From the IMG/VR virus record IMGVR_UViG_3300028586_000750: DNA of 64,000 nt; one strand, written 5' to 3'. This DNA is from a virus. The translations under genes and the position numbers were made by a program. Below are positions 1 to 15,767 of this stretch, in pieces. The notes under the pieces were generated by a model that was not told the DNA's origin, ran no database searches, and was given only the letters and a program-made list of their open reading frames with translations. The first letter of the stretch is position 1, and every line of letters begins with the position of its first letter.

Positions 1-458
1 GGACCTGAATATGTTCTTCCGGTAGCGGAATCGTATCTCACGTCATCAGCACCAGCAACTAATAAGCTGGCTTCTGAATTTACAGAAGTGTTCCATCCAC
101 GGACACTATAGCTTTTCCAGTCACCGAAAACAGAGACTGTAGTGTTAGTGTCAGTAACGATGACTTTATAATTGTTGATACCTGCACCTACAGGTGCGTC
201 ACCATTTCCAAAAGCTCTATTTTGTAGTTCAAGTGCAACTGCTTTAGGGTTCTTAACCAAATATGTGACAACATTAGTGTTGGTGTTTCTCACATCTGAT
301 TTAACGCCAGCTACAATAGCTGATTTTTGTTGATTAGCAAAGATTGGAATAGCAATAGCTGCGAGAATACCAATAATTACGACAACAATCATCAACTCGA
401 TAAGAGTGAAACCCTCTTCTGAACCTGTGTTGCGTAATTTCTGTAAGTTTTTAATCAT
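1..458 (-). CDS. Type IV pilin (prepilin N-terminal cleavage/methylation domain), 3' end runs off the window
   Basis: Not in the ORF track; translated by hand from ATG at 458: MIKNLQKLRNTGSEEG|FTLIELMIVVVIIGILAAIAIPIFANQQKSAIVAGVKSDVRNTNTNVVTYLVKNPKA...RYDSATGRTYSG, open to position 1. Confidence 0.93.
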   Translation of the reverse strand, partial: MIKNLQKLRNTGSEEGFTLIELMIVVVIIGILAAIAIPIFANQQKSAIVAGVKSDVRNTNTNVVTYLVKNPKAVALELQNRAFGNGDAPVGAGINNYKVIVTDTNTTVSVFGDWKSYSVRGWNTSVNSEASLLVAGADDVRYDSATGRTYSG

Positions 459-472
459 GATATGTTCCTGTA

Positions 473-961
473 TTATGGGGTAGTTGTTGGCGCTGGTGGG
501 GAGAAGCTGTATGCGTTGTCAGCAGCACCGCAGCTTAATTGACTAGCATGACCAAGTTCACCATTAAACCCGCTCTTACCTGTTGCAGAAACGAAAATGA
601 AATAACGGCCTGTTTCGTCATACTTATCACCGTTAGCATTGTAAGCTTTAATGCAGTAATCAGATGGTGAACCAAAAATTGAAATTAGTGTACCTTCAGA
701 ACGTGGGGTAGCGAGTTCTGGAAGACGACCTTTGAAAGATTTGACCTGTGGGTGTGAAGCTATCCATCCAGCAATAGTGTTATTAGCTGTCTTCACGTCA
801 CTTTGTGTTCTTGCATCAATCGCTGCTTTTTGTTGGTTAGAGAAGATTGGGATAGCAATAGCAGCGAGGATGCCAATAATTACTACCACAATCATTAGCT
901 CAATAAGGGTGAAACCTTCCTCTGAGCTAGAGTTGCGTAGTTTTTGTAAGTTTTTAATCAT
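473..961 (-). CDS. Type IV pilin, Cys-containing tail
   Basis: G|FTLIELMIVVVIIGILAAIAIP class III signal with E5; two Cys in the C-terminal domain. Confidence 0.95.
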   Translation of the reverse strand: MIKNLQKLRNSSSEEGFTLIELMIVVVIIGILAAIAIPIFSNQQKAAIDARTQSDVKTANNTIAGWIASHPQVKSFKGRLPELATPRSEGTLISIFGSPSDYCIKAYNANGDKYDETGRYFIFVSATGKSGFNGELGHASQLSCGAADNAYSFSPPAPTTTP

Positions 962-988
962 GTCATAGTCCTGTAATAGTTATTATAG

Positions 989-1468
989 TTAGTCGCCTTG
1001 TACAGCAAATTTTCCTGTTTTGGATGTGTAAAGGACACCAAACCCATCCCCGGTGAATATTTGTCCTTTGTCAGCGTCAGCAGTCAAGCTAACAAGCGGA
1101 CCTACTGTTAAATTTCTACCTAAAATAAAGTAATTGTTCCATGAGCCTCTTACAATAATAAGGGTGTCCTTATCACTAATAGTCATTTCGTATTTAGCTT
1201 TTGAGGTAGCATCTTGGCCAGTTGCGTTATGGAAACCATCTAACGTACTAGCTGTTGGGTTCTTAACAAGATATGTTGTAACATTAGTGTTAATGTTTTT
1301 AACGTCTGACTTGATGCCTGCGACAATTGCGCTTTTTTGTTGGTTGGCAAAAATTGGGATAGCAATAGCAGCCAAAATTCCAATGATTACAACAACAATC
1401 ATCAACTCAATAAGAGTGAAACCTTCTTCTGAGCCTGTTGAACGAAGTTCTTTAAGTTTATTAATCAT
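989..1468 (-). CDS. Type IV pilin, Cys-free tail
   Basis: G|FTLIEL motif; tail closely similar to 1472..1963. Confidence 0.95.
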   Translation of the reverse strand: MINKLKELRSTGSEEGFTLIELMIVVVIIGILAAIAIPIFANQQKSAIVAGIKSDVKNINTNVTTYLVKNPTASTLDGFHNATGQDATSKAKYEMTISDKDTLIIVRGSWNNYFILGRNLTVGPLVSLTADADKGQIFTGDGFGVLYTSKTGKFAVQGD

Positions 1469-1471
1469 GAA

Positions 1472-1963
1472 TTAGTCGCCTTGTGCAACAATCTTGCCTG
1501 TTTTGGATGTGTATAAAATGCCAAAAGTGTTGTCAGCAGCTACAAACTTGTAGCCTTTAACTGTGTCTGTTGAAATGCTTGCGATTGGTGCAATAGCAGT
1601 GTTACGACCAAGGACAAAGTAGTTATCCCATGAGCCTCTTACTGTAATCACAGTATCTTTATCAGAAACAGTCATGGAGTATTTAGCTTTTGAAACGGAG
1701 TCTTGACCAGTTGGTGTCCAGTAACCTTCTAAGTCTGCTTCTGTAGCTGTAGGGTTCTTTACCAAGTATGTTGTAACACTAGTGTTAATGTTTTTAACAT
1801 CTGATTTAACACTAGCAATAATTGCGCTTTTCTGCTGGTTAGCAAAAATAGGAATAGCAATCGCAGCGAGAATACCAATGATTACGACAACAATCATTAA
1901 CTCAATAAGGGTGAAGCCCTCTTCTGAGCCTGTGTTGCGTAGTTTTTGTAAGTTTTTAATCAT
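1472..1963 (-). CDS. Type IV pilin, Cys-free tail
   Basis: G|FTLIEL motif; first gene of the minus-strand array. Confidence 0.95.
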   Translation of the reverse strand: MIKNLQKLRNTGSEEGFTLIELMIVVVIIGILAAIAIPIFANQQKSAIIASVKSDVKNINTSVTTYLVKNPTATEADLEGYWTPTGQDSVSKAKYSMTVSDKDTVITVRGSWDNYFVLGRNTAIAPIASISTDTVKGYKFVAADNTFGILYTSKTGKIVAQGD

Positions 1964-2132
1964 GCTGACCTTAGTTGTTTATTATAATAAACATCTGCCG
2001 TTGTTTAGAAGGCTTACAAACCTACGTTTTGATGATTAGGTTTTATTATCTTTTCTTATCTTCTACTTAAACCTTGGGTAACGTTTTTAGTCTATAAAAA
2101 GACCAATTATGTTATGCTTATGAAAATACACT

Positions 2133-2537
2133 TTGATCGGATACCGCATGACAACCCTTTTAGCAAATTTCCTTGTACTGTTTGACCCTATTGTTAATTG
2201 GCCTAAAGCAAAAGACACAGAGTTTCGCCAAAACCTTTTAATGTTTGCTTTTACAGCCTTACTATCTACTATCGCAGGTTTCCTGCTACCAGTATTTAAC
2301 TTCCCTGCGTTTAACGCCGGAACTGCTATCTGTATGACAATTGTTGTTTTTGGTGGGATAGTATCCATTATCCTTGGCATTATGACTTTAGTGGAAATGA
2401 CAGAGACAAGCTGGTGGAAAAAGACATCAAGAAACATTGAGCTAGCAAAAGCTGATGCAAGAAAAAGACGTTTACGTGTAGAAAAAGAAGAAACAGCTAC
2501 ATCTGTTACCAAAGAAGACCTAGAATATCTACGATGA
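2133..2537 (+). CDS. Hypothetical membrane protein
   Basis: Two hydrophobic segments and a charged tail; overlaps the next ORF (ATGA). Confidence 0.6.
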   Translation: MIGYRMTTLLANFLVLFDPIVNWPKAKDTEFRQNLLMFAFTALLSTIAGFLLPVFNFPAFNAGTAICMTIVVFGGIVSIILGIMTLVEMTETSWWKKTSRNIELAKADARKRRLRVEKEETATSVTKEDLEYLR

Positions 2538-2833
2538 TAGATAAGAAGAAAACTTCATTTGGAGATAAGTTAGCTAAAACTCTATATCTAGATTTAGCTA
2601 TAATTTTTGTTCTAGCTGTGGTAGGATTAATATGTCTCTACTTTGGTTTTAGATTACCTAACCCTTATGACATAGTAGTAAACGTTATAGCAGGTTTAAT
2701 AGTTATAGCAGCGAGTGGTCTTGGCGCAGTCGTTTGTTTCAAAATCTTTGTTCTTGGCGAATTTTTTGAAACAGACAAAAACAATAACCTTCGCTCTATA
2801 TTTACAGAACCAGAACCACCTAAGGAAAATTAA
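2534..2833 (+). CDS. Hypothetical membrane protein
   Basis: Two hydrophobic segments; coupled to neighbouring ORFs. Confidence 0.6.
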   Translation: MIDKKKTSFGDKLAKTLYLDLAIIFVLAVVGLICLYFGFRLPNPYDIVVNVIAGLIVIAASGLGAVVCFKIFVLGEFFETDKNNNLRSIFTEPEPPKEN

Positions 2834-2842
2834 AGGCTTCAA

Positions 2843-3559
2843 ATGGAACTTACTGTACAACGACTTGAACAAATCATTGCATCCCAAAAAAGGGTTGTAG
2901 TGGTTACGGGTGCGGGCACTTCAACCTTGTCAGGTATCCCTGACTTCGTTAGCGTGGACAGTGGGTGGGAAGGTGATATCCCTCGTGAAGTGGCTATCAG
3001 TAAAAACTATTTCCATGCTTACCCTAAAAGTTTTTGGAAAGTCTACAAGAAGCTTTTTCTTCCTAAAGTCAGGGCTGAGCTTGCACCATCTAAAGCTCAT
3101 ACTTTTTTGAAAAAGCTTGAAGATTTTGCGGAAGTAGAAATCTACACGCAAAACGTTGACGGTTTACATCAAGCTGCTGGTAGCACTAATGTCACTGAGG
3201 TCCACGGTAACGCAAATACTCTTACTTGCGTTAAATGTCGCAACCAAGTGGATGTTTGGGATGTTTACGATAGTGTTGTACCTATTTGCGAGCTTTGTGG
3301 CAAACTTTTGAAACCAGATGTTGTCTTGTTCGGGGAGAAAAGTCCTGGTTACGGGAAAATGTTTGATGCTTTGAACGGACCTGGTGTTCTTCTTATGATG
3401 GGAACAAGTCTTAACGTAGCCCCTGTTAATCAAATGCCTTTGGAAGCCGCTCAATTCGCTCCCCATTTATGGCGTGTGTATTGGGATAAAACTGCTACTG
3501 CGGAGCAAGAACCTTTGTTCCATCATTACGTGAATACTGATTTTTCAGAGCTAAACTAA
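2843..3559 (+). CDS. cobB: Sir2/CobB-family NAD-dependent deacylase
   Basis: GAGTSTLSGIPDF, TQNVDGLH, HGN, CxxC...CxxC zinc site, KPDVVLFGE, GTSLNVAP. Confidence 0.95.
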   Translation: MELTVQRLEQIIASQKRVVVVTGAGTSTLSGIPDFVSVDSGWEGDIPREVAISKNYFHAYPKSFWKVYKKLFLPKVRAELAPSKAHTFLKKLEDFAEVEIYTQNVDGLHQAAGSTNVTEVHGNANTLTCVKCRNQVDVWDVYDSVVPICELCGKLLKPDVVLFGEKSPGYGKMFDALNGPGVLLMMGTSLNVAPVNQMPLEAAQFAPHLWRVYWDKTATAEQEPLFHHYVNTDFSELN

Positions 3560-3604
3560 AAAACTTTGGCCCCACCAGTTAATTCTGGTGGGGCCAAAGT
3601 TTTT
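3559..3604. terminator. CCCCACCAG-core palindrome (bidirectional terminator-like)
   Basis: 20-bp stem aaaaactttggccccaccag / TTAATT / complement, between convergent genes. Confidence 0.85.
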
Positions 3605-3605
3605 G

Positions 3606-3713
3606 TTACTTGTTGAGCATGTCTTTCTCATGCTGTTCAGCTTCTAAACGAGCCTGCTTCACTTCATCTGAGTTCTCATCGTAACCCAAATCTCGGAATA
3701 GGTTAATACCCAT
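3606..3713 (-). CDS. Small hypothetical protein, 35 aa
   Basis: Hand-translated MGINLFRDLGYDENSDEVKQARLEAEQHEKDMLNK; purine-rich RBS (AAAGGG); fills the gap exactly. Confidence 0.6.
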   Translation of the reverse strand: MGINLFRDLGYDENSDEVKQARLEAEQHEKDMLNK

Positions 3714-3726
3714 TTTACCCTTTTCT

Positions 3727-4020
3727 TTAGTTGAACATGTACCCTGCGTACACAGTTGCGGTAGGAGCAATAAGGCTGTTCACGCTTGTGTGACCGTCAG
3801 TGTAGAACTTCCTGGTAAGGATGTTCTCACCGTACAGAGTGATGTTCTCGTAGTAATAGCCGTCCATGCGACCAACATCTTCTGTTACCTCACCGAACTG
3901 GAAGTTTTCCCCATCAACGATAAGGACATACTCACCAGTTGCAATCTGCTCAGGGTTAACCTGAGTTAGGTTGCTTGCGTTGACTACAGTCTTAACGAAC
4001 TGCTGTGCGTCACCATTCAT
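3727..4020 (-). CDS. Hypothetical protein
   Basis: ORF with AGAAA-rich RBS; codon usage like neighbours. Confidence 0.65.
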   Translation of the reverse strand: MNGDAQQFVKTVVNASNLTQVNPEQIATGEYVLIVDGENFQFGEVTEDVGRMDGYYYENITLYGENILTRKFYTDGHTSVNSLIAPTATVYAGYMFN

Positions 4021-4095
4021 TTTTCTTTCAATCTTTGTTGTGTTACTCGGTTAATATATTTCCAGCATATCAAACAAAAGCGTGTTTTGCAACCA

Positions 4096-4395
4096 TTAGA
4101 TGTGGTGGATGAAATAATTCATTCGTGCAATGTAACGCGTTAGAGGCGCTGCGGTTGGGTTGTGCATCACATCGTAGCAAACCCACTTTTTACCGTCTAC
4201 AGCGAGCTTGTGAAGCGTGCTGGGGTAGGTTGCATGGTTACGAGCAATCACGCGAAGAAGCACAATGTCTTCGTTGTCTCGCTCAGCAAGATAATCAAGG
4301 TCATCAGGGAAAGCATAAGGGTTCTCAGCAGCAGTCACCCGCTCATACCAGTCATCTGAGTGAGCGTTACCCACAGTTATAGCAAACGTAGACAT
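4096..4395 (-). CDS. Leucine-rich-variant (LRV)-repeat-like protein
   Basis: IARNHATYPSTLHKLAVD...VMHNPTAAP resembles the A.NP.TP..L..LA.D repeat. Confidence 0.45.
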   Translation of the reverse strand: MSTFAITVGNAHSDDWYERVTAAENPYAFPDDLDYLAERDNEDIVLLRVIARNHATYPSTLHKLAVDGKKWVCYDVMHNPTAAPLTRYIARMNYFIHHI

Positions 4396-4508
4396 TGTAA
4401 GTCTTTCTTGTCTTTCCAATAATTACTTTTACTGTAGCACAGTTGCCAGACATATGGAAATTGCCTCACCGACTAATTTGGTGAGGCAATTTCTGTGATG
4501 CAGATAAT

Positions 4509-4751
4509 TTACTGTGCAGCAGCTTTCGTACCAGAAGCAGTGAGAACAACGACAGCAGCACGGAGGCTAGGTGCAGCGCGGGTAAGGCTGCGCTGCATGA
4601 GAGACTTGTAAGTGCGAGTATCCGAAGAACGGCGTCCCTGAACGATGAAATAAGGCTTGTCCTTGCGGGAAAGAGGGAAGTGAACGTACTTGACTTCACC
4701 CTTCTGAACGAGTTCAAGGGCGGTCTTCTGAGCGATGCTAAGAGTGGGCAT
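4509..4751 (-). CDS. Basic hypothetical protein
   Basis: Start reassigned to MPTLSIAQK (ATG 4751, RBS GGAAA). Confidence 0.55.
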   Translation of the reverse strand: MPTLSIAQKTALELVQKGEVKYVHFPLSRKDKPYFIVQGRRSSDTRTYKSLMQRSLTRAAPSLRAAVVVLTASGTKAAAQ

Positions 4752-4922
4752 GTTATTTCCTTTTAATGAGGGACTTAATTGCTTACAAAGTAATAGTATC
4801 ACGAACCACTGACATTTTGAGCACTTGTAAAAAGACATACAAAGCTTGTTGCTATTGTCAGTCGTAGGGTGTAGAGTGAACTTAAAGTTATTCAACCATC
4901 TAATTGAGAGAGATAATTACCA

Positions 4923-5435
4923 ATGACTTACCGTATTTTCACTGAAAGCGTTCTTGATGAGGTTGCTGATTTCACCCTCAAGCTTGCTATCCCTGAGAGC
5001 AGCTACAATGTTAAGAACGCAGACGGTACGGCTCCTGTAGTAACCCTCAAGGTTAACGCTTCTACCAAGCGTTTCGCTCTCGCTGCCCTTCGTGAGATTA
5101 ACACCACTCAGGAAATGCTCAACATCATCGCTCAGCACCGTCTGGGCGCTGACTTCGCCACTCTTGTTGTAAGGAAGCCCAAGAAGGCTACCAAGCTCAT
5201 GGAGAAGATTGACCCTAAGTTCTACGAGTTCTACTTCAAGGCCACTCAGGATGAGGCTGACGGCGGTGGAGAGATTGAGGTTACGCTTACCGCTCCCAGC
5301 GGCCTCATTGGTTTCAAGGCTTTCCAGGCTATGACCAACCCTCAGAAGCTTTCTGGTCTTCTTGCCAGCTTCATGCCTGATGAGGATGAGGACGACTTTG
5401 ACGATTATGACACCGACGAAGACTACGGCAACTAA
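4923..5435 (+). CDS. Hypothetical protein with strongly acidic C-terminal tail
   Basis: Ends DEDEDDFDDYDTDEDYGN; C-ending codon bias; followed by hairpin at about 5446-5486. Confidence 0.75.
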   Translation: MTYRIFTESVLDEVADFTLKLAIPESSYNVKNADGTAPVVTLKVNASTKRFALAALREINTTQEMLNIIAQHRLGADFATLVVRKPKKATKLMEKIDPKFYEFYFKATQDEADGGGEIEVTLTAPSGLIGFKAFQAMTNPQKLSGLLASFMPDEDEDDFDDYDTDEDYGN

Positions 5436-5500
5436 GTAGTTTCATATTGAGCCTCGCACCTGAATAATTTAGGTGCGAGGCTCAATTGCTTTTGACAGAC

Positions 5501-5546
5501 AAATAGTTATGGCCCCACCAGTTATCTGGTGGGGCCATAACTATTT
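5501..5546. terminator. CCCCACCAG-core palindrome
   Basis: 21-bp stem, TTAT loop, convergent genes. Confidence 0.85.
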
Positions 5547-5552
5547 AAGTTT

Positions 5553-5867
5553 TTAGTTGATAAGACGGGTCATGTAATCTACTGCCACCTTGGTGCCAGC
5601 TTCATCTGCCCCATCAATCTTTGCTACTCCAAGGATGAAAGCGGCAAGCGTGTAAGCTTCATCGATAGTGGTTACAGCCTTGATACGGTCGCTTTGCTCC
5701 ATGAGCACCTTAGCGATAGCATCCGACTTGTTCTGTAGACGCTGAGCGTTCTCAGGGTTGGTAGCCTTTGCGGCAAGAAGGTCAAGTGTCTTGACGGCAT
5801 CCGCCATGTCACGAATTGCTTCGGTACGGAAAAGTTCGAGCTTTGTGTTTTCAATCGTAGTAGTCAT
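5553..5867 (-). CDS. Hypothetical helical protein
   Basis: RBS GAGG; upstream TTGACA...TGTATAGT promoter. Confidence 0.7.
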   Translation of the reverse strand: MTTTIENTKLELFRTEAIRDMADAVKTLDLLAAKATNPENAQRLQNKSDAIAKVLMEQSDRIKAVTTIDEAYTLAAFILGVAKIDGADEAGTKVAVDYMTRLIN

Positions 5868-6032
5868 AATGCTACCTCGTTTCTTTGTTAGTTTTTATTA
5901 TATGTTTCAACTATACACCTTGGTGTAGTTTTGTCAACAAGCAAGGGTATGGGAAAAGACAATATATTAGATAGTGATATATGATTGGTATGCTAGACGC
6001 AAGTCTCAACATACCGTCACATTAGGCCCTAA

Positions 6033-6392
6033 CTAGCCCTGTGCAGGCGGTAGAGGGGTTCTAGTGCGCTGCCTGAGCCACTTAGCGTTACGCTTCGCTA
6101 AACGGTGTGGCGAGGCTTCTACGACCGCAATGAGTTCATTTACGTCTGACTGCCCATTAAGGAAAGGGAAGATATAAGAGTGGTCAGCGTGACCTTCTTC
6201 AAGAAGAGAAGCAACTTGCGAATGGATAATTTGCATTTTGTTCACAATGGAATGCATTTGCTGCAAGGCTTCGTTTGAAGTGTAAGCACCTTTTTCTTCA
6301 AAGCGCTTAAAGTAATGTAAAGCCATCTCAGCAGTATCCTCTGCTTGTTGATGAATAGAGTTTAGAGCAGCTACTTCACTTAGTTTATCCAT
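6033..6392 (-). CDS. Hypothetical protein
   Basis: ORF preceded by TGGTATCCT -10 box (near-leaderless). Confidence 0.6.
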   Translation of the reverse strand: MDKLSEVAALNSIHQQAEDTAEMALHYFKRFEEKGAYTSNEALQQMHSIVNKMQIIHSQVASLLEEGHADHSYIFPFLNGQSDVNELIAVVEASPHRLAKRNAKWLRQRTRTPLPPAQG

Positions 6393-6472
6393 AGAATTTT
6401 AGGATACCACTTATAGGTTGTTAAAGCAAACAAAAACGGGGAACAGTATATTAATACTGCCCCCCGTGAGGC

Positions 6473-6691
6473 TTAAAGAGCCTTGATAAGCTTTCGGATT
6501 AGTCCGTTAGTTCCGAACCTAGAACCGAAGGCACTATCAAAGAGCCTCTTTAGCTCAATCTTCTTCTCTTGGATTGACTGGTCGCTGTCCAAAATTGTAA
6601 GCGCTTTGTCAGTGATAATTCCGGACATACCGTAGAACTCATTGATGAGCGTATCTACGTTCACGTAAGTGTTGTTGAGGTTGATACTCAT
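6473..6691 (-). CDS. Hypothetical protein
   Basis: ORF with AAAGGAAAGG upstream. Confidence 0.6.
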   Translation of the reverse strand: MSINLNNTYVNVDTLINEFYGMSGIITDKALTILDSDQSIQEKKIELKRLFDSAFGSRFGTNGLIRKLIKAL

Positions 6692-6773
6692 TCGGGTGGA
6701 TACCTTTCCTTTGTTTATGGTTCAATCATAGCATAGAAAAAGGCCCCCATGTGAGGGCCTTTTTCTATTTTTC

Positions 6774-6998
6774 TCAGACCTCGTAGAGGTAGTTGTTAAG
6801 GGGACTGTAAAGAGCCTCCAAGTCACGCATCTGCTGGGCGCGAAGGATTTCGTCCACAATTGCGTAAACGGTTCGTGCGTTGCTCTCGTTAACAACTGCA
6901 CCAGCGAAAACAGACAGGCGAATACGGGCGTTCTCGAAGTTGTCCGCGCGAACTGCGGAAATGAAGTCTTCCTTCATTGCTTCTGCGAAACCGTTCAT
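6774..6998 (-). CDS. Hypothetical protein
   Basis: RBS AGGAG; ends at a hairpin. Confidence 0.65.
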   Translation of the reverse strand: MNGFAEAMKEDFISAVRADNFENARIRLSVFAGAVVNESNARTVYAIVDEILRAQQMRDLEALYSPLNNYLYEV

Positions 6999-7110
6999 TG
7001 TCTTGCTCCTTGTTGTGTAGCGAACTGGGATGTTTCAAGTATACATGGACAGCAAGACTTACGCAACAACAAAAGTGCGGAACACCAATATTTCTGGTGT
7101 TCCGCACTTT

Positions 7111-7368
7111 TTAGTCTTCTACGTTCCCTGTGACAAGCACCTGGTCTGTCTTGGGAAACGCCCAACTAGTGTGTGACGTGTGAAGCACGACAGCTTCACC
7201 TTCGACCTCAATTGTTTCTACAACGAATGTTTCTACTTCTGAGGTTAGCCTTAGAACTTCTAGGTCATCACCGTCATCAGAGGTAACGTTCTCTAGAATA
7301 GGGTAAAAATCAATAAGGTCGCCAACCTTAACTTCTGTTACTGGGGTTAGTGTTCCGTCTTCCGACAT
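7111..7368 (-). CDS. Hypothetical acidic protein
   Basis: RBS AGGAG; beta-strand-like pattern. Confidence 0.65.
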   Translation of the reverse strand: MSEDGTLTPVTEVKVGDLIDFYPILENVTSDDGDDLEVLRLTSEVETFVVETIEVEGEAVVLHTSHTSWAFPKTDQVLVTGNVED

Positions 7369-7465
7369 TAAATCTCCTGTTTTATGGAATATATACTTTC
7401 ATAGTATATCAATCTTTTCCCAAGTTAGCAAGACCTAACTTGGGAAAAGACATTACTCGCAGCTA

Positions 7466-7768
7466 TTAAGCGTTGTTGTACTCGTCTTCGCTGCGAGGGC
7501 TGAACTCCCAAGCGGGACTGTCTTCCATGCCGACCTTAAAGTGCCTACGGTACTCGCTACCGTCATCGTCAATCGTGACCCAAGGCTCAGGGTCCGACCA
7601 AAGAGGGTGAACCTGCTCATCAAACTCGTCTCGCGGGTCGTACGTCCACCCGTTCCACATGACACCGTTCTCGTCAAGTCCGTCCTCGTGAGCGGTGTGA
7701 GTGCGAAACTCCTTACCATTCTCGTCAAGGGTAACCCAAGGCTCGGGGTCGCGGTTCACGGTGTACAT
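7466..7768 (-). CDS. Acidic protein with internal duplication
   Basis: RDPEPWVTLDENGKEFRTH repeated as SDPEPWVTIDDDGSEYRRH. Confidence 0.7.
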   Translation of the reverse strand: MYTVNRDPEPWVTLDENGKEFRTHTAHEDGLDENGVMWNGWTYDPRDEFDEQVHPLWSDPEPWVTIDDDGSEYRRHFKVGMEDSPAWEFSPRSEDEYNNA

Positions 7769-7879
7769 GTTAACTCCAAAATTAGTGGGGATGAACTCTT
7801 AACTAAAGCGTACACCTGTAGAGCAGAAAGAGCAACACCAAAAAAGACAAGTTTTTGAAGAAACTGATATGCTTTACCT

Positions 7880-8299
7880 ATGGAAAAGTTTCGTATTAAC
7901 CCCTTATGGGCTGCTGTCATGTATAACGCTGGCACTGACCTTGACTCGCAAAAAGAAATTGAAGAAAATGCAAGTAAATTAGCTGCATCATTGTTTTGGC
8001 GATACGGCGAAAACAAAGCTTCTTTCAATGTTCTCGACAATCGCGGGAAAGAACAAAGCTTTTCTGGGGATGTTTTCCTAATTTCAGAACATGGAACGAA
8101 AATCCGTAATATGTTCTCGGGAACACTTATCTCAAAATGGCGAGAAAATGGAATTGAATATTCTCATATAGATACTATTTTGGTCTTGGATGCAATTTAC
8201 GATGTCCAAAAAGCAATGCAACAGATTACTGTAACTAAATCGCTCAAAGATTACCGCATCATAGATAAGCATTCATCTTCCTTGACAGAAAGTTTCTAA
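7880..8299 (+). CDS. Hypothetical protein, I(D/N)P(I/L)WAA family copy 1
   Basis: N-terminus shared with 9539 and 10001; leaderless TGATATGCT-N6-ATG. Confidence 0.7.
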   Translation: MEKFRINPLWAAVMYNAGTDLDSQKEIEENASKLAASLFWRYGENKASFNVLDNRGKEQSFSGDVFLISEHGTKIRNMFSGTLISKWRENGIEYSHIDTILVLDAIYDVQKAMQQITVTKSLKDYRIIDKHSSSLTESF

Positions 8300-8317
8300 A
8301 CTTTTTTGGTCAAGGTG

Positions 8318-8347
8318 TTGCGGATACCATTTTGACCGTGCTATAGT
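8318..8347 (+). promoter_or_regulatory. Sigma70-type promoter
   Basis: TTGCGG-N18-TATAGT with TG extension; no convincing ORF downstream before the terminator. Confidence 0.6.
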
Positions 8348-8353
8348 AGAGAT

Positions 8354-8585
8354 ATCAAGGGGGTTGTTGAACACAAACCGAACCTTGTGAGTAAGTTATT
8401 GACAAATACATATCGCGTTCAGAAGATGAAAACTTTCCTTTTCTAGTTAGTTTGTGAACTGATACCCCTCCTAAATGGTGCACCGTTTAGGGATAAAAGT
8501 GGGAGTACAGGTTAAGGAAAAAGTAATCTGCGCATTAGATATAGTTACTTACCAAAAATGGCACCCTCAATGGGTGCCATTTTTG
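8354..8585 (+). ncRNA. Candidate structured small RNA (about 230 nt)
   Basis: Promoter upstream; terminator aaaaatggcaccc/gggtgccattttt; GGGG..CACAAAC can pair with GTTTGTG..CCCC. Confidence 0.4.
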
Positions 8586-8599
8586 TTTGTCCAGTAGTT

Positions 8600-8989
8600 T
8601 CATTTACTGTTCTTAACTTCTTTCAGTAGTTGATAGTAGTTAACTTTTTTACGAAGTGTGTCTGGCGAGGCAGTTCGTGTTCCAAAAAGTTTGATTTGGA
8701 TACTGAAGGCTGACTTCATTATGCGTTCTTCTGAGGTTTCCCCAATAATATGAGTGTGGCCTTTATCGCCTAGTTTACGAGCCATTTTTTCAAGCAAAGC
8801 TTTTTCTGTTTCACTTTTACTGTAGCCAAAATCCATGTCACGCATATTAATTTCAACTAGCTCAACGTAAGCGGCTTCAAGCTTTTTTTGTTCCTCGTCA
8901 TTATCCCAAGGAAGATAGACGTACCCTTGTTCTAGTAACCATCTATTAATACGTGCTTTTTCAGCTAAAGACATATTAGGTATACCCAT
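8600..8989 (-). CDS. Hypothetical protein, SLAEKARINRWLLEQGY family copy 1
   Basis: Clear paralogue of 8989..9414. Confidence 0.75.
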   Translation of the reverse strand: MGIPNMSLAEKARINRWLLEQGYVYLPWDNDEEQKKLEAAYVELVEINMRDMDFGYSKSETEKALLEKMARKLGDKGHTHIIGETSEERIMKSAFSIQIKLFGTRTASPDTLRKKVNYYQLLKEVKNSK

Positions 8990-9414
8990 TATTTTGCCTT
9001 CTTTTTTCTAGTCTTCGTTTTGATGTTTTTCTCTTCTTTGACCTGTTTAAGCAACTGGTAGTAGTTTACTTTTCTACGTACTTTTGCGTCAGGAAGGTTG
9101 AAGCGTTCTAAGGCGGTGATGTTAATAGACATTATTGATTTCATCATGCGTTCTTCTGATGACTCACCTAAAAGCCTAGTGACCTTTTCTTTATTCAACT
9201 TTTCTGAAAGTCCCACTATCAGCTTTCGGCGTGCTTCATCTTCTGCGTTTTCATAAGTGATGCTAGTTAAGTCTATTTCTACGAGTTCAACATATGCATC
9301 ATCTAGTTGTTTTTGAGTTTTGTCGTTATCCCAAGGAAGATAGACATAGCCTTGCTCTAGTAACCACCTGTTTACGCGAGCTTTTTCAGCCAAATTCAAA
9401 CTTATTCTTGCCAT
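8989..9414 (-). CDS. Hypothetical protein, SLAEKARINRWLLEQGY family copy 2
   Basis: Shares RWLLEQGYVYLPWDND and KVNYYQLLK with copy 1. Confidence 0.75.
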   Translation of the reverse strand: MARISLNLAEKARVNRWLLEQGYVYLPWDNDKTQKQLDDAYVELVEIDLTSITYENAEDEARRKLIVGLSEKLNKEKVTRLLGESSEERMMKSIMSINITALERFNLPDAKVRRKVNYYQLLKQVKEEKNIKTKTRKKKAK

Positions 9415-9538
9415 AGTTACATCTTTCGCAATATTCCCGTTAGCAATTTTAGCATTGTTCTGATTTTCACCTGAGAATAGTTAGTATAAGCAAGTCTTAA
9501 AAAAGACGTAAATTACAAAATGCTGATATGGTTACTAT

Positions 9539-9958
9539 ATGAAAATGTTCTTAATCGATCCTATTTGGGCTGCTAAAACATATAACCCTAATGTTAATAC
9601 TAAATCTGTTGTGGATGTAACTAAAGCTGCGATAGATTTTATTACTAATCTCAAATGGTATTACTCGTCCCCAGAAATTACGCACGTACAGGCCAAAACT
9701 ACCAAGGCTGATGGAACGGAGTATGCAGGTGGGGTTAATCTTATAGGTGAAAATGGAGAAATCAGAAAATATTTCAAAGCTCCACTAATTGCATCATGGC
9801 AAGACAGCGAAGATTGTGTCATTGTTGAAATGCCTACAATTCTAATTCAGCGAAAATTATATAATGTTCGTAAAGCTATGGAGCTTTTTAATATAGAACC
9901 TGAGGAAGATATCTCTTACCTTGATATCGCTGATGAGCTTGAATACATCAAAGCTTAA
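9539..9958 (+). CDS. Hypothetical protein, IDPIWAA family copy 2
   Basis: IDPIWAAKTYNPN...ADELEYI shared with 10001; leaderless. Confidence 0.75.
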   Translation: MKMFLIDPIWAAKTYNPNVNTKSVVDVTKAAIDFITNLKWYYSSPEITHVQAKTTKADGTEYAGGVNLIGENGEIRKYFKAPLIASWQDSEDCVIVEMPTILIQRKLYNVRKAMELFNIEPEEDISYLDIADELEYIKA

Positions 9959-10000
9959 CCTATAAAAGACCAATTTTAGAAAACGTGATAGATTTTATTT

Positions 10001-10402
10001 ATGCAAAAATTTTATATTGATCCTATTTGGGCTGCTAAAACATATAACCCTAATATAAATGTTAACTCTGTAGAGGAAGTGTCAAAAGCTGCTAACCTCT
10101 TTATAAAAAAATTAACATGTTATTATCCTACTCCAACTGAAATTCAAATTGACATGTTTTCAGTGTGCGCGGATGGGGAAAAATTTCATGGTCCTATAGA
10201 TATAATTTCTGAAGAGGGAAACGAATTAAGAGAAAAACATAAAAGTACATTATTGTCTTCTTGGAGAATCAGAGGCATATCCCATTTCCAAATGACTAGT
10301 GGAATTATTATAGTGAAACAACCTTATGATGTAGACAAAGCTATAAAGTTACACAACTTATTGTCTACTGGCGCTGATGAGCTTGAATATATAGAGTTTT
10401 AA
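10001..10402 (+). CDS. Hypothetical protein, IDPIWAA family copy 3
   Basis: Paralogue of 9539; leaderless TGATAGATT-N6-ATG. Confidence 0.75.
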   Translation: MQKFYIDPIWAAKTYNPNINVNSVEEVSKAANLFIKKLTCYYPTPTEIQIDMFSVCADGEKFHGPIDIISEEGNELREKHKSTLLSSWRIRGISHFQMTSGIIIVKQPYDVDKAIKLHNLLSTGADELEYIEF

Positions 10403-10446
10403 ATGAGTGAAGCCCCACCAGTCATCTGGTGGGGCTTCACTCATTT
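10401..10446. terminator. CCCCACCAG-core palindrome
   Basis: 21-bp stem, TCAT loop, convergent genes. Confidence 0.85.
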
Positions 10447-10450
10447 GCGA

Positions 10451-10789
10451 TTAACGACGGCGACTGCCACCGAGGGTGAAGATAAGACCAACGATGCCAA
10501 TAATAATCCAAGCGACAGCCCAGTTGTTAGCACCAACGTTTGCAATGTCCGTGATACCGAAAGCAATTGCCCAGATGCAAAGACCAATGATTGCGATGTT
10601 GATGAGAAGGTTAATCAGAATGGTCGCAGCAATTCCGAACTCAGCCGGGGCGTCAGTCAGCGTGCTACGGCTACGCGTAACGGGAGCCAGGTAACGGTAC
10701 TGCTCACGAGGGTCAACAGGCTGAACGGGAAGGTTCTTCTTTGCCTCAGCCTTGAGAGCGGCCTCTTCGCGGGAGTTACGAACAAACAT
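10451..10789 (-). CDS. Membrane protein
   Basis: Two C-terminal hydrophobic helices; RBS GAAGGG-like. Confidence 0.65.
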   Translation of the reverse strand: MFVRNSREEAALKAEAKKNLPVQPVDPREQYRYLAPVTRSRSTLTDAPAEFGIAATILINLLINIAIIGLCIWAIAFGITDIANVGANNWAVAWIIIGIVGLIFTLGGSRRR

Positions 10790-10880
10790 GATTTAATCCT
10801 TTGTTTTGAAGGGAATAACTTGTTGGTAGTTCCACTATAAGCTTTCGTACGCTTACATGTCAACTATTTCGCAAAACTTT

Positions 10881-11120
10881 TTAGGTATTTGGTAGAACAG
10901 ATATTGGTTGCAAACGCTCAATAAAACGAACATGAGTAATAACGCTCAAACTAGCGTAGACGCCTAGTGTTGCAACCAAGGAGAGTGCACCAGGAAAGTC
11001 TATGTCTCTACCTAGTGTTACTAAGATGATTAGTGTAATTGCTATAGCTGCAAGAAGCAGATAAGTAGCTATAGCTAAAACTGCTAATTTTATTTGTGAT
11101 GATGCTATCTTGTTGGCCAT
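10881..11120 (-). CDS. Small membrane protein
   Basis: Two hydrophobic helices. Confidence 0.55.
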   Translation of the reverse strand: MANKIASSQIKLAVLAIATYLLLAAIAITLIILVTLGRDIDFPGALSLVATLGVYASLSVITHVRFIERLQPISVLPNT

Positions 11121-11238
11121 AAGTTAATTATACGATAGAACGCGGTTGCTTCCATTAATTAAAGCACTTGGGAAAAGACATTGCTTTTCAAGGAATATAA
11201 TGATAAGATAGCCAGTAGACTACTTTATAAGGAATGCA

Positions 11239-12078
11239 ATGACTACAGTATTTATGTACCCAAACGACATGTTTGCGAAAAGCCAGGTTGACGATGAATT
11301 CGTTAACGACCTTGCTGCTGCCGTTGCACTTTCTTTCCCCACTGTTTTCCTAGATGCTGAATCGCTTGAAGATGACCGAATTAAAATTCGTGGCGTTATT
11401 CCAGAAGGAAGCACTGTTATCTATCGCGGGTGGATGCTTTCACCCGAGCGTTATCAGCGTCTTAGTAATGCTGTAGAAAAGACAGGTTCAGTTCTATTCA
11501 CCACACCTGAGCAGTATTCTAAAGCTCATTTCATGTCAGGTTGGATTGATGCTCTAGGTGACTTGACCTTCAAAACCAAGCTTTATCCTGCTCCCGTTGA
11601 CATTGACGCAATTGTTGCATCTGCACCCGATTGGTCCAGTTTCTTTGTCAAGGATTATGTAAAGTCCGTTTACGGCTTTACAGGGGAAGTTGTTAAAGAT
11701 GACCTTGCTAGTTTCTTGGAAGGTTTTATGGAAGAGCATAGCTACTGGCTTGCTGGTGGTATTGCTCTTCGTGAGTTCGTAAATATCCCTGAGGATGCTG
11801 TAGAGCTTCGCGGTTGGTGGGTTAATGGGAACTGGCACTTCACACCACATCCTAAGTTCGCAAATGTAGGAAGCCTTCCTGTCGTTGATGAAGAGCTTCT
11901 TAATAACATTAATGACAAGCTAAAAACTTTGGGTGTTGCGTTTGTTAGCGCTGATTTCATTGAGATTTCTGCTGGTTCTTGGACTGTTATCGAAATTGGT
12001 GACGGACAAGTTTCAGGACTACCCCACTATGAGGATGCATCAAGAAATGACGCTGTAAATATTTATAGACTATTTTAA
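11239..12078 (+). CDS. ATP-grasp domain protein (R2K/DUF4343-like)
   Basis: YRGWMLSPERY, FFVKDYVKS, ALREFV, ELRGWW, FVSADF, WTVIEIGDGQVSG. Confidence 0.85.
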   Translation: MTTVFMYPNDMFAKSQVDDEFVNDLAAAVALSFPTVFLDAESLEDDRIKIRGVIPEGSTVIYRGWMLSPERYQRLSNAVEKTGSVLFTTPEQYSKAHFMSGWIDALGDLTFKTKLYPAPVDIDAIVASAPDWSSFFVKDYVKSVYGFTGEVVKDDLASFLEGFMEEHSYWLAGGIALREFVNIPEDAVELRGWWVNGNWHFTPHPKFANVGSLPVVDEELLNNINDKLKTLGVAFVSADFIEISAGSWTVIEIGDGQVSGLPHYEDASRNDAVNIYRLF

Positions 12079-12135
12079 AATAGACTAAAGGCCCCAACTC
12101 AGATTGAGTTGGGGCCTTTAGTCTTAACTAACGTT

Positions 12136-12516
12136 TTACTTAATAAGGTTCCTGCGACGAGCTTCTGCCACATACTGGGAGTAATACTTATGTCCTGAGA
12201 AGAACTCTAGAACAAACGAGACTATTGACACTGCCGAAAAGAAGCCTGTGATGAGAAGTGGGATACCCAAAATAATCCAGATACCCCAGAAGTTGAAGTT
12301 AATCTGTAAAGGCACCGCTACTGCAAGGAAAACAGCCGTTAAGAGAACAGCTACCACAGCAAGGAAGTCTTCTTCGGGAGCGCTGTGAGCGGCGAAGTGA
12401 GAATAGTGGCCTCTAGAGTTGGTTTCACTTTTGATAGTCTCAAGTAGCTCACTGTCGGACAAGCTCTTGTGATAAGAGTCTTCTTGGCCCAAGTCTTTTA
12501 AGGTAACTGTTTGCAT
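12136..12516 (-). CDS. Membrane protein
   Basis: Start reassigned to MQTVTL; two TM helices. Confidence 0.6.
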   Translation of the reverse strand: MQTVTLKDLGQEDSYHKSLSDSELLETIKSETNSRGHYSHFAAHSAPEEDFLAVVAVLLTAVFLAVAVPLQINFNFWGIWIILGIPLLITGFFSAVSIVSFVLEFFSGHKYYSQYVAEARRRNLIK

Positions 12517-12665
12517 AAAATTAGTGTAGCACAAGCTTCTAACTTGCGCAACCATGTGCAACTTAAAAGTTTGCGCTACATATTGATTTATACGGGTTCT
12601 TTGTGTATGCTTACTGTATTGAGCGGCACCGAATACAGCGTGTGCCACATTTGTTGGAGAATATT

Positions 12666-12896
12666 ATGAACCGCTTTTTCGCTTTTGTCGCTAGCGCTTG
12701 GATTGCTGTTGCTCTCGGAATCATTGCTGCTCTGGTAATCGTCCTGGTCAACGTTTTTGACGGCCTGAACAATGGTTGGGAGACTTCCAACACCATCTGG
12801 ATTATTGGTGCTGTTGGCGGCTTCTTCATCTGGGAAATTACAGTGGTTATCATTGCGGTTGTCTCCGCAGTGGTCACGAATAAGAACCGCTTTTAA
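12666..12896 (+). CDS. Small membrane protein
   Basis: RBS GGAG; two TM helices; start MNRFFAF. Confidence 0.65.
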   Translation: MNRFFAFVASAWIAVALGIIAALVIVLVNVFDGLNNGWETSNTIWIIGAVGGFFIWEITVVIIAVVSAVVTNKNRF

Positions 12897-13027
12897 CTAG
12901 TAACTAGGTAAGGCCCCAAGTCATTTAAGGCTTGGGGCCTTACCTTTACCCTTTGGGAAAAGACAGTGCATATAAACAAGTGTGGCCCCTTACTAATCAG
13001 GTAAGGGGCCACACTTGGAAGGTCTAA

Positions 13028-13114
13028 CTAGATACCAAGCTCATTCATGAGAGCAATCGTCTCAGCGTCGAACTCGTCGGTCATGATGAACTCATCGTCA
13101 GTGTAAGTAGCCAT
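13028..13114 (-). CDS. 28-aa acidic peptide
   Basis: MATYTDDEFIMTDEFDAETIALMNELGI; RBS AAGGAAA; ends at a hairpin. Confidence 0.6.
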   Translation of the reverse strand: MATYTDDEFIMTDEFDAETIALMNELGI

Positions 13115-13308
13115 TGTAATAGGTTTCCTTCTGTAAGTTAGTGGGTGTCTTGCTTTCTGGTTACAGCTTACATCCTTATTTTGAAGCTTGTCAACTTGAA
13201 ACGGAACTTTTTTAGAAAAAGATTTCCGGGTTTTAAGTTGCATCCAGCCATTGAGAGTGATAGAGTTCTTACATACAGCAACACCACCTAAAAACTTTGG
13301 AGAAATAA

Positions 13309-13533
13309 ATGTTCAACCCCTTCGCTTTCGGTCGTAAGAAGAACCTCACGTTCGTTCAGATTGAGGTTAAGAACCTTCAGCTTAACGATGTTGTTCGTGA
13401 AGGTGGGCACACTGCTGAGGTTGCGGAAATGAACTCGTCCGTTGCTTTCGCTGGCCACCTGAACATCAAGCTCGCTGATGGACACACGTTCCTTGCTCAG
13501 CCTTTCGAGACGATTTACCGTCAGGCTGCGTAA
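13309..13533 (+). CDS. Hypothetical protein
   Basis: RBS GGAG; C-ending codon bias. Confidence 0.7.
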   Translation: MFNPFAFGRKKNLTFVQIEVKNLQLNDVVREGGHTAEVAEMNSSVAFAGHLNIKLADGHTFLAQPFETIYRQAA

Positions 13534-13538
13534 TAAAA

Positions 13539-13586
13539 CATAAAGGTAATGCCCCACCAGTTATCTGGTGGGGCATTACCTTTATG
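13539..13586. terminator. CCCCACCAG-core palindrome
   Basis: 22-bp stem, TTAT loop. Confidence 0.85.
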
Positions 13587-13627
13587 ACACTCCATGCTTT
13601 ATAGTTGAATTATGGTAAACTTAATAT

Positions 13628-14296
13628 ATGAAACCTATAATTTTCTTAGACTTTGATGGTGTGATCAATGCTATCCCACGTGAGCGCATTTACGTGGGGC
13701 CTGAACCAGCGGACATTCTTGATATGTACCCTTCAAAGAACTGGGAATGGAAAGACGTTACGCCTGACCTAGAAACCCATTTTGAGCTAGACCAAATCAC
13801 TACTGCGCATACTAACGGTCGTGACTACAAAATCACTTATTCTTCTGAGGTCGTAGCTGCATTACGTGAACTAATTGTTGAAGACAAAGTGCAGTTCATC
13901 TGGTTAACGACATGGCGTGAAGATGCTATGTCTAAGTTGAACCCTATTCTTGGTTTCCCTAACGACAAAACATCTAGTTTGCAGTGGTTTGATACTTCTA
14001 TCAGTCACACAAACCCTCAAATGGGTAAATATTACGGGATGATTGACTACTTTGAAAAACTTGAACGCGATAACGTTGATTTAGACGGAACATCCATTGT
14101 CTGGGTTGATGATGTAGCTACAATTGGGTTTGTTGATTTGACTGATAAAGAGAAAAAGTTCCGTATTGAGCATTATGCTGCTTCACCAGTTCTTTTATAC
14201 CCTTCTCTTGTAGTTAAACCAGATATGCATTTTGGTATTTCTCGTGCTGAATTGAAAAGCATTCAGGATTTTGTTGAAGAGCAGAACAAGCGATAA
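13628..14296 (+). CDS. HAD-family phosphatase (Swiss-Army-knife RNA-repair HAD type) copy 1
   Basis: FLDFDGVIN motif I, WLTTWR, VWVDD; leaderless. Confidence 0.8.
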   Translation: MKPIIFLDFDGVINAIPRERIYVGPEPADILDMYPSKNWEWKDVTPDLETHFELDQITTAHTNGRDYKITYSSEVVAALRELIVEDKVQFIWLTTWREDAMSKLNPILGFPNDKTSSLQWFDTSISHTNPQMGKYYGMIDYFEKLERDNVDLDGTSIVWVDDVATIGFVDLTDKEKKFRIEHYAASPVLLYPSLVVKPDMHFGISRAELKSIQDFVEEQNKR

Positions 14297-14305
14297 CCGA
14301 GTGGT

Positions 14306-14503
14306 TTAGATTTCCGCGCTTTCGCCATATGCGATAGCGCGGCTTTCTTTACGGGCAATGGACATTAGCTCAAGCACTGCTTTGGCTGCAATAATCTTCT
14401 TATCTTGGACAGTGTTCCCGTTCCATGATACTGATTGCTTAGCTAAGTATTTTGCTTCGTCAAGGTCGATTGTTAATGTGTTGGTTGGGCCTGAATATTT
14501 CAT
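14306..14503 (-). CDS. Hypothetical protein
   Basis: Leaderless TAAACT-N6-ATG. Confidence 0.55.
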   Translation of the reverse strand: MKYSGPTNTLTIDLDEAKYLAKQSVSWNGNTVQDKKIIAAKAVLELMSIARKESRAIAYGESAEI

Positions 14504-14576
14504 AGTTCTAGTTTAACCCAAAAATTATTGTCGTTAAAGAATAAGATGATTTCAAACTTAATGCTAAACTTTCTAC

Positions 14577-14912
14577 ATGAAAAACATTATATTAACTGGT
14601 ACCCCAGTTTCTTTGCCTGAACACATGCGACAACTTTCTATTCATGATGCGCCTCTTGATGTAGTGGTCTATATGCCTTTTGATAACCTTTATGTTGATG
14701 GCAATTATGGGCTATGGGTTAGCCCTGATGATGGTTTTTATGACCTTGAGGACATTGAGGATGAAGAAGAAGATTTCGTTGCAGTCACTCGCCATGAAGA
14801 AGGTTTTGAAATTTGGGTTAGCATACTTGACCAATTTACTGTTGACCGTACAGCCACCTTTGAAAAGTTTCTTCCTGTTATCCGTTTGAACTTAGCGGAT
14901 GAAGAAGACTAA
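14577..14912 (+). CDS. Acidic hypothetical protein
   Basis: Leaderless TGCTAAACT-N6-ATG. Confidence 0.65.
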   Translation: MKNIILTGTPVSLPEHMRQLSIHDAPLDVVVYMPFDNLYVDGNYGLWVSPDDGFYDLEDIEDEEEDFVAVTRHEEGFEIWVSILDQFTVDRTATFEKFLPVIRLNLADEED

Positions 14913-14928
14913 CCCTTTGGGAAAAGAC

Positions 14929-14966
14929 AAGTAAGGCCCCACCAGATGACTGGTGGGGCCTTACTT
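14929..14966. terminator. CCCCACCAG-core palindrome
   Basis: 17-bp stem, ATGA loop, convergent genes. Confidence 0.85.
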
Positions 14967-14975
14967 TATTGTGTG

Positions 14976-15110
14976 CTACTCAGCGAGGATACCACTGGCA
15001 CCCGACACGCTCACAATAGCGGTTGCGTTGGTGTCCTCCACCGTTGCAACAGCCGGAGTGGCCGTGGTAAGGGCAAGAACAAAAACGATGCTAGCTCCGA
15101 AGACCTTCAT
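14976..15110 (-). CDS. 44-aa secreted-type peptide, paralogue of 60932..61063
   Basis: Hand-translated MKVFGASIVFVLALTTATPAVATVEDTNATAIVSVSGASGILAE; RBS AAAGGAAAA; own promoter. Confidence 0.8.
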   Translation of the reverse strand: MKVFGASIVFVLALTTATPAVATVEDTNATAIVSVSGASGILAE

Positions 15111-15149
15111 GATGTTTTCCTTTCTCAGTGGTTTTTCTCTCTAACAACA

Positions 15150-15178
15150 AGTATACGGGTTTACCCCATCAAGTGCAA
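15150..15178 (-). promoter_or_regulatory. Sigma70-type promoter of the 44-aa peptide
   Basis: TTGCAC-N17-TATACT on the minus strand. Confidence 0.7.
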
Positions 15179-15298
15179 CCTTTTGGGCCATTCATTTGGA
15201 CATATTTGATAACAAAAGTTCACTTGGTTTTCTGGCCATGAACCGGGTTTTCTACAAACACTGATTATAGATATGTAGAAAACATCCGAGGGGAACAC

Positions 15299-15766
15299 GT
15301 GTTAAAAATTTTACGCGCACAACGACAAAGCGCAAGTGAAGAGGGCTTCACTCTTATCGAGTTAATGATCGTTGTGGTCATTATTGGCATCCTCGCTGCT
15401 ATTGCTATTCCAATCTTCGCAAACCAACAGAAATCAGCTATAGCGGCTGGCGTTAAGTCAGATGTTAAGAACACCAACACAAACATCGCTACAGCGCTTA
15501 TTAAAAACCCTAAATCAGATGATGTATCTGCTGATTTTAAAGAGTCAGAAGTTTATAACGGTCACCCTGTAACAAAAACAGAAGCTGACGCAGGAAAAAA
15601 TGTTGTCATTAGCGATACCAGAACAACTATTACAATAGGTGATGGAACCGGAGAACGCATAGCTTGGGACCGCTACATTGTGGTAGGTAAAAATCCTTCT
15701 GTTAGTTCTACGTTCAGTGTTACTTACGACGTAAAAACAGGTAAAACAACAACAGTGGGAGCATAA
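15299..15766 (+). CDS. Type IV pilin, Cys-free tail
   Basis: GTG start; SEEG|FTLIELMIVVVIIGILAAIAIPIFANQQK. Confidence 0.93.
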   Translation: MLKILRAQRQSASEEGFTLIELMIVVVIIGILAAIAIPIFANQQKSAIAAGVKSDVKNTNTNIATALIKNPKSDDVSADFKESEVYNGHPVTKTEADAGKNVVISDTRTTITIGDGTGERIAWDRYIVVGKNPSVSSTFSVTYDVKTGKTTTVGA

Positions 15767-15767
15767 A

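Follow-up and report, generated by a model that had tools for sequence, protein, structure and literature searches.

A probable type IV prepilin operon on a giant replicon that also carries type IVa pilus, Tad and conjugative secretion genes

The DNA studied here is a 64,000-nucleotide stretch of the IMG/VR virus record IMGVR_UViG_3300028586_000750 (hereafter the window, meaning the whole stretch analysed), the first 1,963 positions of which hold four type IV prepilin genes. We found that these genes belong to a family of at least 20 verified paralogues, counting the pilins of the window, of its left flank and of an array linked to pilus machinery, and that the 791,061-bp contig carrying the window pilins also carries cognate assembly machinery, namely PilB, PilC, PilM, PilT and a weak PilO-like match. 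Because this machinery lies on the same contig, the leader and alpha-1 helix match and the heads diverge, we propose, with a probability of roughly 0.6, that the window pilins are alternative or co-polymerising subunits of the replicon's own type IVa pilus. The four-gene operon would be one part of a pilin set on a probably circular replicon of about 791 kb with its own retractile type IVa machine; the signal peptide and assembly helix are held by purifying selection in all paralogues as the exposed heads diverge, and the varied heads would change the fibre surface, and with it the adhesion target, the mating partner or the escape from pilus-binding phages, leaving assembly unchanged. About 160 kb of the replicon were examined directly, and statements below on genes not found on it refer to this portion. 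The pilin genes of the window, and the region upstream of the first, are as follows.

1472-1963, minus strand: prepilin gene 1, 163 amino acids (aa); 16-aa leader ending in G, then F+1 and E+5; no cysteine
989-1468, minus strand: prepilin gene 2, 159 aa; 70% identity to gene 1; no cysteine
473-961, minus strand: prepilin gene 3, 162 aa; two cysteines in the head
3-458, minus strand: prepilin gene 4, 3' end beyond the window edge
1964-2010, minus strand: probable operon promoter and ribosome-binding site, with TTCTAA at 2010-2005, 18 nucleotides, TATAAT at 1986-1981, AAGG at 1972-1969 and ATG at 1963
15299-15766, 15768-16322 and 16325-16804, plus strand: second array, three prepilin genes with leader and alpha-1 as in the genes at 3-1963

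In the alignment, each of the first four genes encodes a 16-residue leader ending in SEEG, followed by F+1, E+5 (FTLIE) and the hydrophobic helix FTLIELMIVVVIIGILAAIAIPIF, and all four match PF07963 (N_methyl) in Pfam with 31-33 bits against a cut-off of 21.2 (E about 1e-7 to 3e-8). Gene 1 reaches 31.1 bits with this profile and 32.3 bits, against a cut-off of 16.3, with the NCBIfam prepilin-type domain TIGR02532. A first-pass annotation, made from the sequence alone, had described four complete head-to-tail prepilin genes with these N-terminal features and divergent tails, a description that the open reading frames (ORFs), the PF07963 matches and the alignment confirm; gene 4, cut by the window edge, is intact elsewhere as a 156-aa ORF (L001:11506-11976, in four metagenome contigs, L001-L004). 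Since the spacers between the genes measure only 3, 27 and 14 nucleotides and a promoter-like site precedes the first ATG, the arrangement suggests a single operon, of which TTCTAA-18-TATAAT and AAGG would probably be the promoter and ribosome-binding site; this site was read straight from the sequence and was not listed by the pattern scanner. RNA-library contigs from two leaf-litter runs contain a match that starts at window position 325 after 42 unrelated letters, as expected for another paralogue or strain with the same conserved 5' pilin segment.

Beyond the shared N-terminus, the heads of the four operon pilins have a mutual identity of only 25-60%. Over the first 47 codons the synonymous difference (pS) is 0.53-0.77, near saturation, and the non-synonymous difference (pN) 0.02-0.19, from which it follows that the shared N-terminus is kept by selection and not by recent copying; judged in this way, the four genes are old paralogues under selection, neither chance ORFs nor recent copies. 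Two of the heads have closer counterparts outside the operon: that of gene 3 has 41% identity to the third pilin in the machinery-linked array (L098:16224-16706), and for gene 4 the figure is 52%, with an array pilin of a 715-kb relative (L016:10001-10477). A C-terminal disulfide-bonded D-region was not found, with cysteines in only one of the four pilins (the two of 473-961). Many Gram-positive pilins likewise lack this region, and we do not count its absence against pilin membership.

The AlphaFold2 model of the 163-aa gene 1 protein (predicted local distance difference test, pLDDT, 91) shows an alpha-1 helix of about 50 residues (19-69) followed by an antiparallel beta-sheet head of 6-7 strands, the canonical pilin architecture. 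Foldseek gave no row against the PDB at E <= 0.001, and its best rows, the PAK and gonococcal pilins, are weak (E 0.04-0.2, probability 0.93-0.96). Across structure and sequence comparisons the top matches are major pilins: PAK, gonococcal pilin, Thermus PilA5 and Streptococcus sanguinis PilE1 (structure 8pfb). In NCBIfam and the PDB the best matches are likewise major (pseudo)pilins (GspG, PilA, ComGC, PAK and PilE), GspH scores lower, and neither comparison supported a FimU/GspH-type minor-pilin identity. The window pilins are thus predicted to be complete type IVa-like major prepilins with short leaders.

To place the window on its replicon, we followed individual proteins across assemblies. 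The gene 1 protein (P0001) is encoded in identical form by 23 contigs, the longest measuring 791,407 bp, and the 522-aa ORF at window 41221-42789 lies at 41,255-42,823 of ENA ERZ27250822 k141_903752 (791,061 bp), so that the window corresponds to positions ~35-64,034 of that contig. PilB (P0139), found by a search with the PilB of a related contig, is on the same record within 684,584-706,287. For P0001, P0139 and RecA (P0250) alike the longest contig measures 791,407 bp; contigs of 787,832, 791,061 and 791,407 bp from independent samples and assemblers keep the window and the pilus locus together, and the tetranucleotide correlation between window and PilB locus is 0.80-0.85. Because the IMG/VR record continues leftward for 33 kb or more past the start of the window, the point at which the ENA contig begins, and contigs of nearly equal length recur across samples and assemblers, the ~791-kb replicon is likely to be circular. 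The DNA was found in leaf-litter and straw metagenomes. The first-pass annotation had seen no PilB, PilC, PilT or prepilin peptidase in the 64 kb, and indeed Pfam finds no T2SSE, T2SSF or Peptidase_A24 among the 114 window ORFs; the premise of a replicon without pilus machinery is not supported, since the ORF at 41221-42789 and the PilB cluster share one 791,061-bp contig. The loci concerned, reached in part by a leftward walk of four steps from the pilus locus on a Joint Genome Institute (JGI) contig with positions assigned by synteny, are these.

About 690-706 kb of k141_903752: type IVa pilus locus, in order PilM, two ORFs (one with a weak PilO match), a 361-aa PilT, PilB, a 450-aa PilT-family ATPase and PilC
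Same locus, continuing after PilC: a serine recombinase (IS607-like), 9-10 tandem pilins and CpaB/RcpC of a Tad system
L113:7584-19962 (JGI Ga0540620_0000032), about 674-686 kb of the ENA contig by synteny: Gram-positive-type (Tcp/ICEBs1-like) conjugative type IV secretion module, apparently complete, directly upstream of PilM
L114:2378-2731: full-length transfer-messenger RNA (tmRNA; Rfam, 133 bits), near DnaB, an HNH endonuclease and RecA
L117:17526-17612: tRNA

The two PilT-family ATPases score 366 and 454 bits, both above the cut-off of 319, and PilB, matched along its whole length, scores 544 bits, short of the equivalog cut-off of 675; PilC/GspF reaches 318-325 bits and PilM 86 bits. The serine recombinase matches IS607-like transposases with 87.6 bits, below the cut-off of 110. 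All relatives examined (L006, L016 and L017 included) have it at the same position, with PilC on one side and the pilin array on the other. The secretion module comprises a coupling protein (TrwB_AAD_bind, 26 bits, plus TraG-D_C), a TcpC-like protein, TcpE (65 bits), a VirB4-like AAA_10 protein of 1147 aa (238 bits), a 917-aa protein and an M23+SLT hydrolase. Further left follow a DinG-like helicase, RecA, a DUF87 ATPase, DnaB, a thioredoxin-reductase-like protein, the HNH endonuclease, the tmRNA and the tRNA, and beyond these lie more orphan genes and another HAD_SAK_2 gene (L117:15856-16344).

The pilin family extends well beyond the operon. Six of the 114 window ORFs match N_methyl in Pfam, three further pilins lie directly to the left of the window, and in the ten pilins of the L098 array the leader and helix read ...SEEG|FTLIELMIVVVIIGILAAIAIPIFANQQK, exactly as in the window pilins. 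Head types common to the window pilins and the arrays of related replicons are 37-52% identical. The machinery-linked array itself varies by sample, with 10 or 9 genes and a 193-aa or 145-aa variant at one position (L098/L099/L102), and related contigs of 688-1,000 kb show the same synteny of pilus genes, recombinase, pilin array and Tad genes with 12 to at least 17 pilins. An R2K_3 ATP-grasp gene (window 11239-12078) stands between the two window pilin arrays, and a homologue stands between PilC and the array in the 715-kb relative (L016:6803-7660); the product could be a pilin-modifying ligase. Searches started from the pilins were less informative: a single pilin found no match in IMG/VR and a pilin alignment found eight, covering the N-terminus only; among the matches listed in a scan of genome contigs, all were N-terminal only, mostly to Gemmatimonadota, and say nothing on host or relatives; and tblastn against GenBank phages and PLSDB plasmids gave no match, the low-complexity filter probably masking the helix.

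Multi-pilin type IV pili with a common N-terminal domain are familiar from S. sanguinis (PilE1/PilE2) and Haloferax volcanii (PilA1-6). As there, we see several complete pilins with a near-identical signal peptide and assembly helix and different heads, here proposed to serve one machine; unlike there, the copies number at least 20, many lie at least 85 kb from the machine, and they reside on a 0.79-Mb replicon whose nature is uncertain. A large stock of alternative pilin heads also recalls Neisseria pilE/pilS, where the pilS copies are silent, having neither a promoter nor the N-terminal coding part, whereas all copies here are whole genes, leader included, and the four window genes form a putative operon with a promoter-like site.

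Several points weigh against counting the window pilins among the subunits of a pilus encoded by the replicon itself. They lie about 85 kb from the pilus locus if the replicon is circular, in an accessory region carrying the 11-mer GGGAAAAGACA, and the link from pilin to fibre is drawn from sequence. No Peptidase_A24 (prepilin peptidase) was seen in the window or the fetched loci, and processing may therefore depend on another genome or an unseen locus. RNA-library contigs over 1-20000 are short and patchy, cover genes and spacers alike and may stem from DNA carry-over; they speak neither for nor against transcription. Finally, the window and machinery regions may differ in history. The 11-mer is strand-polar, with 18 copies on the plus strand of the window (5951-59141) and none on the minus strand; seven more occur in the left flank L001, and none in the ~75 kb around the pilus, secretion and RecA genes (five overlapping loci, L099, L112-L114 and L117). 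G+C content (GC) is 41-42% in the window versus 38.5% around those genes, and tetranucleotide usage also differs slightly. Because of these differences the replicon may be a mosaic of two compartments.

Such a division would suit an explanation close to that of the first-pass annotation, in which the window is part of a compartment of phage-like character, be it a free megaphage or a jumbo prophage lodged in the 791-kb replicon, whose pilins mimic resident subunits and insert into, re-skin or jam the pilus, thereby blocking superinfection by pilus-dependent phages or altering adhesion. We regard this as improbable, at about one chance in five. Apart from the distribution of the 11-mer and the GC contrast, it is favoured by the abundance of small orphan genes in the window and by its conflict-type families, which comprise SIR2, NADAR, HAD_SAK_2 (three copies), cREC_REC, R2K ATP-grasp, an Arr-type ADP-ribosyltransferase and Imm33. 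The moron family phrog_3433 of PHROGs is annotated 'pilin', and an orphan pilin of Microbacterium with the same leader and helix, described below, has MmeI and ApeA as neighbours in an island bounded by integrases. The precedent named by the first-pass annotation is also published: in Pseudomonas aeruginosa a prophage encodes a single FimU-like minor pilin that acts on the host machinery in anti-phage defence (PMC12952977). That case shares with ours a pilin gene on a mobile element, and differs in that our pilins are of the major type, in many copies and with machinery on the same replicon.

Other observations speak against a phage-like compartment. No virion structural family was found for the 114 window ORFs in Pfam or among the PHROGs families listed (at most 25), or among ten large proteins near the pilus cluster, where the only 'terminase' PHROG matches fall on VirB4/HerA-type ATPases. 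On the side free of GGGAAAAGACA, too, there are orphan genes and a HAD_SAK_2 paralogue, seven window pilins plus three to their left go far beyond what blocking needs, and the 787-791 kb contigs of independent assemblies hold both regions together. The term 'phage-like' used for the replicon is accordingly unproven: about 160 kb have yielded no virion hallmark, and a conjugative secretion module adjoins the pilus genes. With its own machinery on the replicon, hijacking of a host pilus is not required, and a decoy or exclusion role is no longer needed to explain the pilins. Other window families are NT5C, RNase_T, glutamine amidotransferase, BaxI and an ArsP-type permease, RNA-repair and NAD-conflict domains occur at 13628-14296, 45079-45663, 62399-63034 and elsewhere, and ARAGORN finds no tRNA in the window. 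The 522-aa window ORF gave no phage match in tblastn and only helical-repeat-like Atlas rows, and the PilB-like matches in the phage collection belong to faecal fragments without annotation or to records made up of several contigs rather than to curated phages.

A second explanation, to which we give similarly low credence, is that the fibre is a mating-pair pilus for the adjacent conjugative type IV secretion system, with the heads setting or broadening the recipient range. In its favour, the secretion genes, wall hydrolase included, lie directly upstream of PilM, the recombinase is constant between PilC and the array, and the array differs between samples. It has parallels in the thin pilus of IncI1/IncI2 plasmids with its shufflon (R64, TP114; PMC9045228, PMC5430464), where conjugation specificity of the IncI2 plasmid TP114 works through a type IV pilus with variable PilV adhesins (PMC9045228), and in the conjugative type IVb pilus of PAPI-1 (PMC5297154): in these systems, as here, type IV pilus genes stand beside a type IV secretion system on one element, and a recombinase adjoins variable pilin sequence. 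However, the IncI and PAPI-1 pili are type IVb and only the C-terminus of the minor adhesin PilV varies, through inversions by the tyrosine recombinase Rci, whereas our pilins have short leaders of type IVa-like form and a serine-type recombinase beside them, and what varies is a set of whole, separate major-type genes on one strand, an arrangement unlike the inversion of sfx-bounded C-terminal segments in a single tip adhesin. The recombinase, its IS607-like score falling short of the cut-off, may have nothing to do with pilin choice; no relaxase was recognised in the flanks examined beside the module, and adjacency alone does not prove a functional link.

Equally doubtful in our view is a third explanation, a cellular one: the replicon would be the chromosome of a bacterium related to Actinomycetota, fast-evolving and with a reduced genome (0.7-1.0 Mb), and the pilins would be ordinary chromosomal paralogues. 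RecA is of bacterial type and 67-69% identical to that of many Actinomycetes (two Actinomycete RecAs compared directly are 84% identical); DnaB, the thioredoxin-reductase-like protein, the full tmRNA, permeases and membrane proteases would fit a cell, as would the combination of type IV pilus, Tad and type IV secretion genes, known from episymbionts, and the common synteny of related contigs of 688-1,000 kb. Against it stand the ~160 kb without a ribosomal-protein, RNA polymerase, aminoacyl-tRNA synthetase or metabolic operon, the window ORFs, whose mean length is ~157 aa and of which about one-fifth match Pfam, and genes beside dnaB and recA that differ from those we take to be their partners on actinobacterial chromosomes. 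The first-pass annotation had said that its proposal would fall if the contig proved to be a cellular chromosome with cognate pil genes nearby; inspection of the flanks has revealed the pil genes on the replicon, and has not established a cellular chromosome.

The relatives of the replicon bear on the same question. Among 401 genomes drawn evenly from the class containing Citricoccus, identity to PilB does not exceed 46-47%, and the best matches all come from small genomes of one order; the tally includes eight unpublished genomes (G037, G025, G033, G008, G264, G044, G374 and G031), none among the matches cited and none needed for any statement made here, and a search within the order of G173 took in only 8 genomes. 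Although the clade is common in raw assemblies, none of the NCBI-named genomes has a RecA above 69% or a PilB above 49% identity. This gap tells against a cell, being what one would see if the clade were lost at the binning step because it has no marker genes. The orphan pilin WP_363384895.1 of Microbacterium sp. (GCA_040686955.1; L118:8789-14108) has the leader and helix of the window pilins. Its gene has 49% GC in a chromosome of ~72% and lies in an island with two flanking integrase genes, the MmeI restriction enzyme and ApeA, which shows that pilins of this family do reach islands in actinobacterial chromosomes.

As to what the replicon is, a conjugative megaplasmid-like element seems a reasonable candidate, though at somewhat less than even odds; a megaphage is unlikely, a reduced cell a little more so, and a mosaic or some other kind of element the least probable. 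The size class, few annotated genes, tRNAs with a tmRNA, and many orphan genes resemble huge phages above 500 kb, such as a 717-kb freshwater phage (PMC10914622) and the 841-kb BF3 (10.1101/2025.01.14.633092), and differ from the replicon in that no capsid, portal or terminase was found in the ~160 kb examined here. BF3 was rejected as the same element, being a different entity of 55% GC against ~40% here, and nothing was found to connect the replicon with the 717-kb COBRA phage. In the literature we found no description of this element and no huge phage reported with a type IV pilus, Tad and conjugative secretion set. More speculatively, and with considerable doubt, one may picture a widespread non-cellular lineage of 0.7-1.0-Mb replicons in decaying plant material, megaphages or giant conjugative elements, which would build their own retractile type IV and Tad pili on the host surface with more than 20 interchangeable heads and seed orphan pilins into actinobacterial defence islands such as that of Microbacterium.

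What first looked like phage pilins lacking a pilus is now seen to be a giant replicon that has its own machines for pili, Tad pili and conjugation, with a pilin repertoire of unusual size. Should the replicon be non-cellular, an entire surface-fibre system whose subunits can be exchanged would be travelling on a mobile element, a point relevant to the spread and attachment of giant elements; should it be cellular, it would represent a reduced actinobacterial-like lineage not recognised before. Either way, a near-invariant assembly domain joined to many different heads offers a natural test set for the function of pilin heads.

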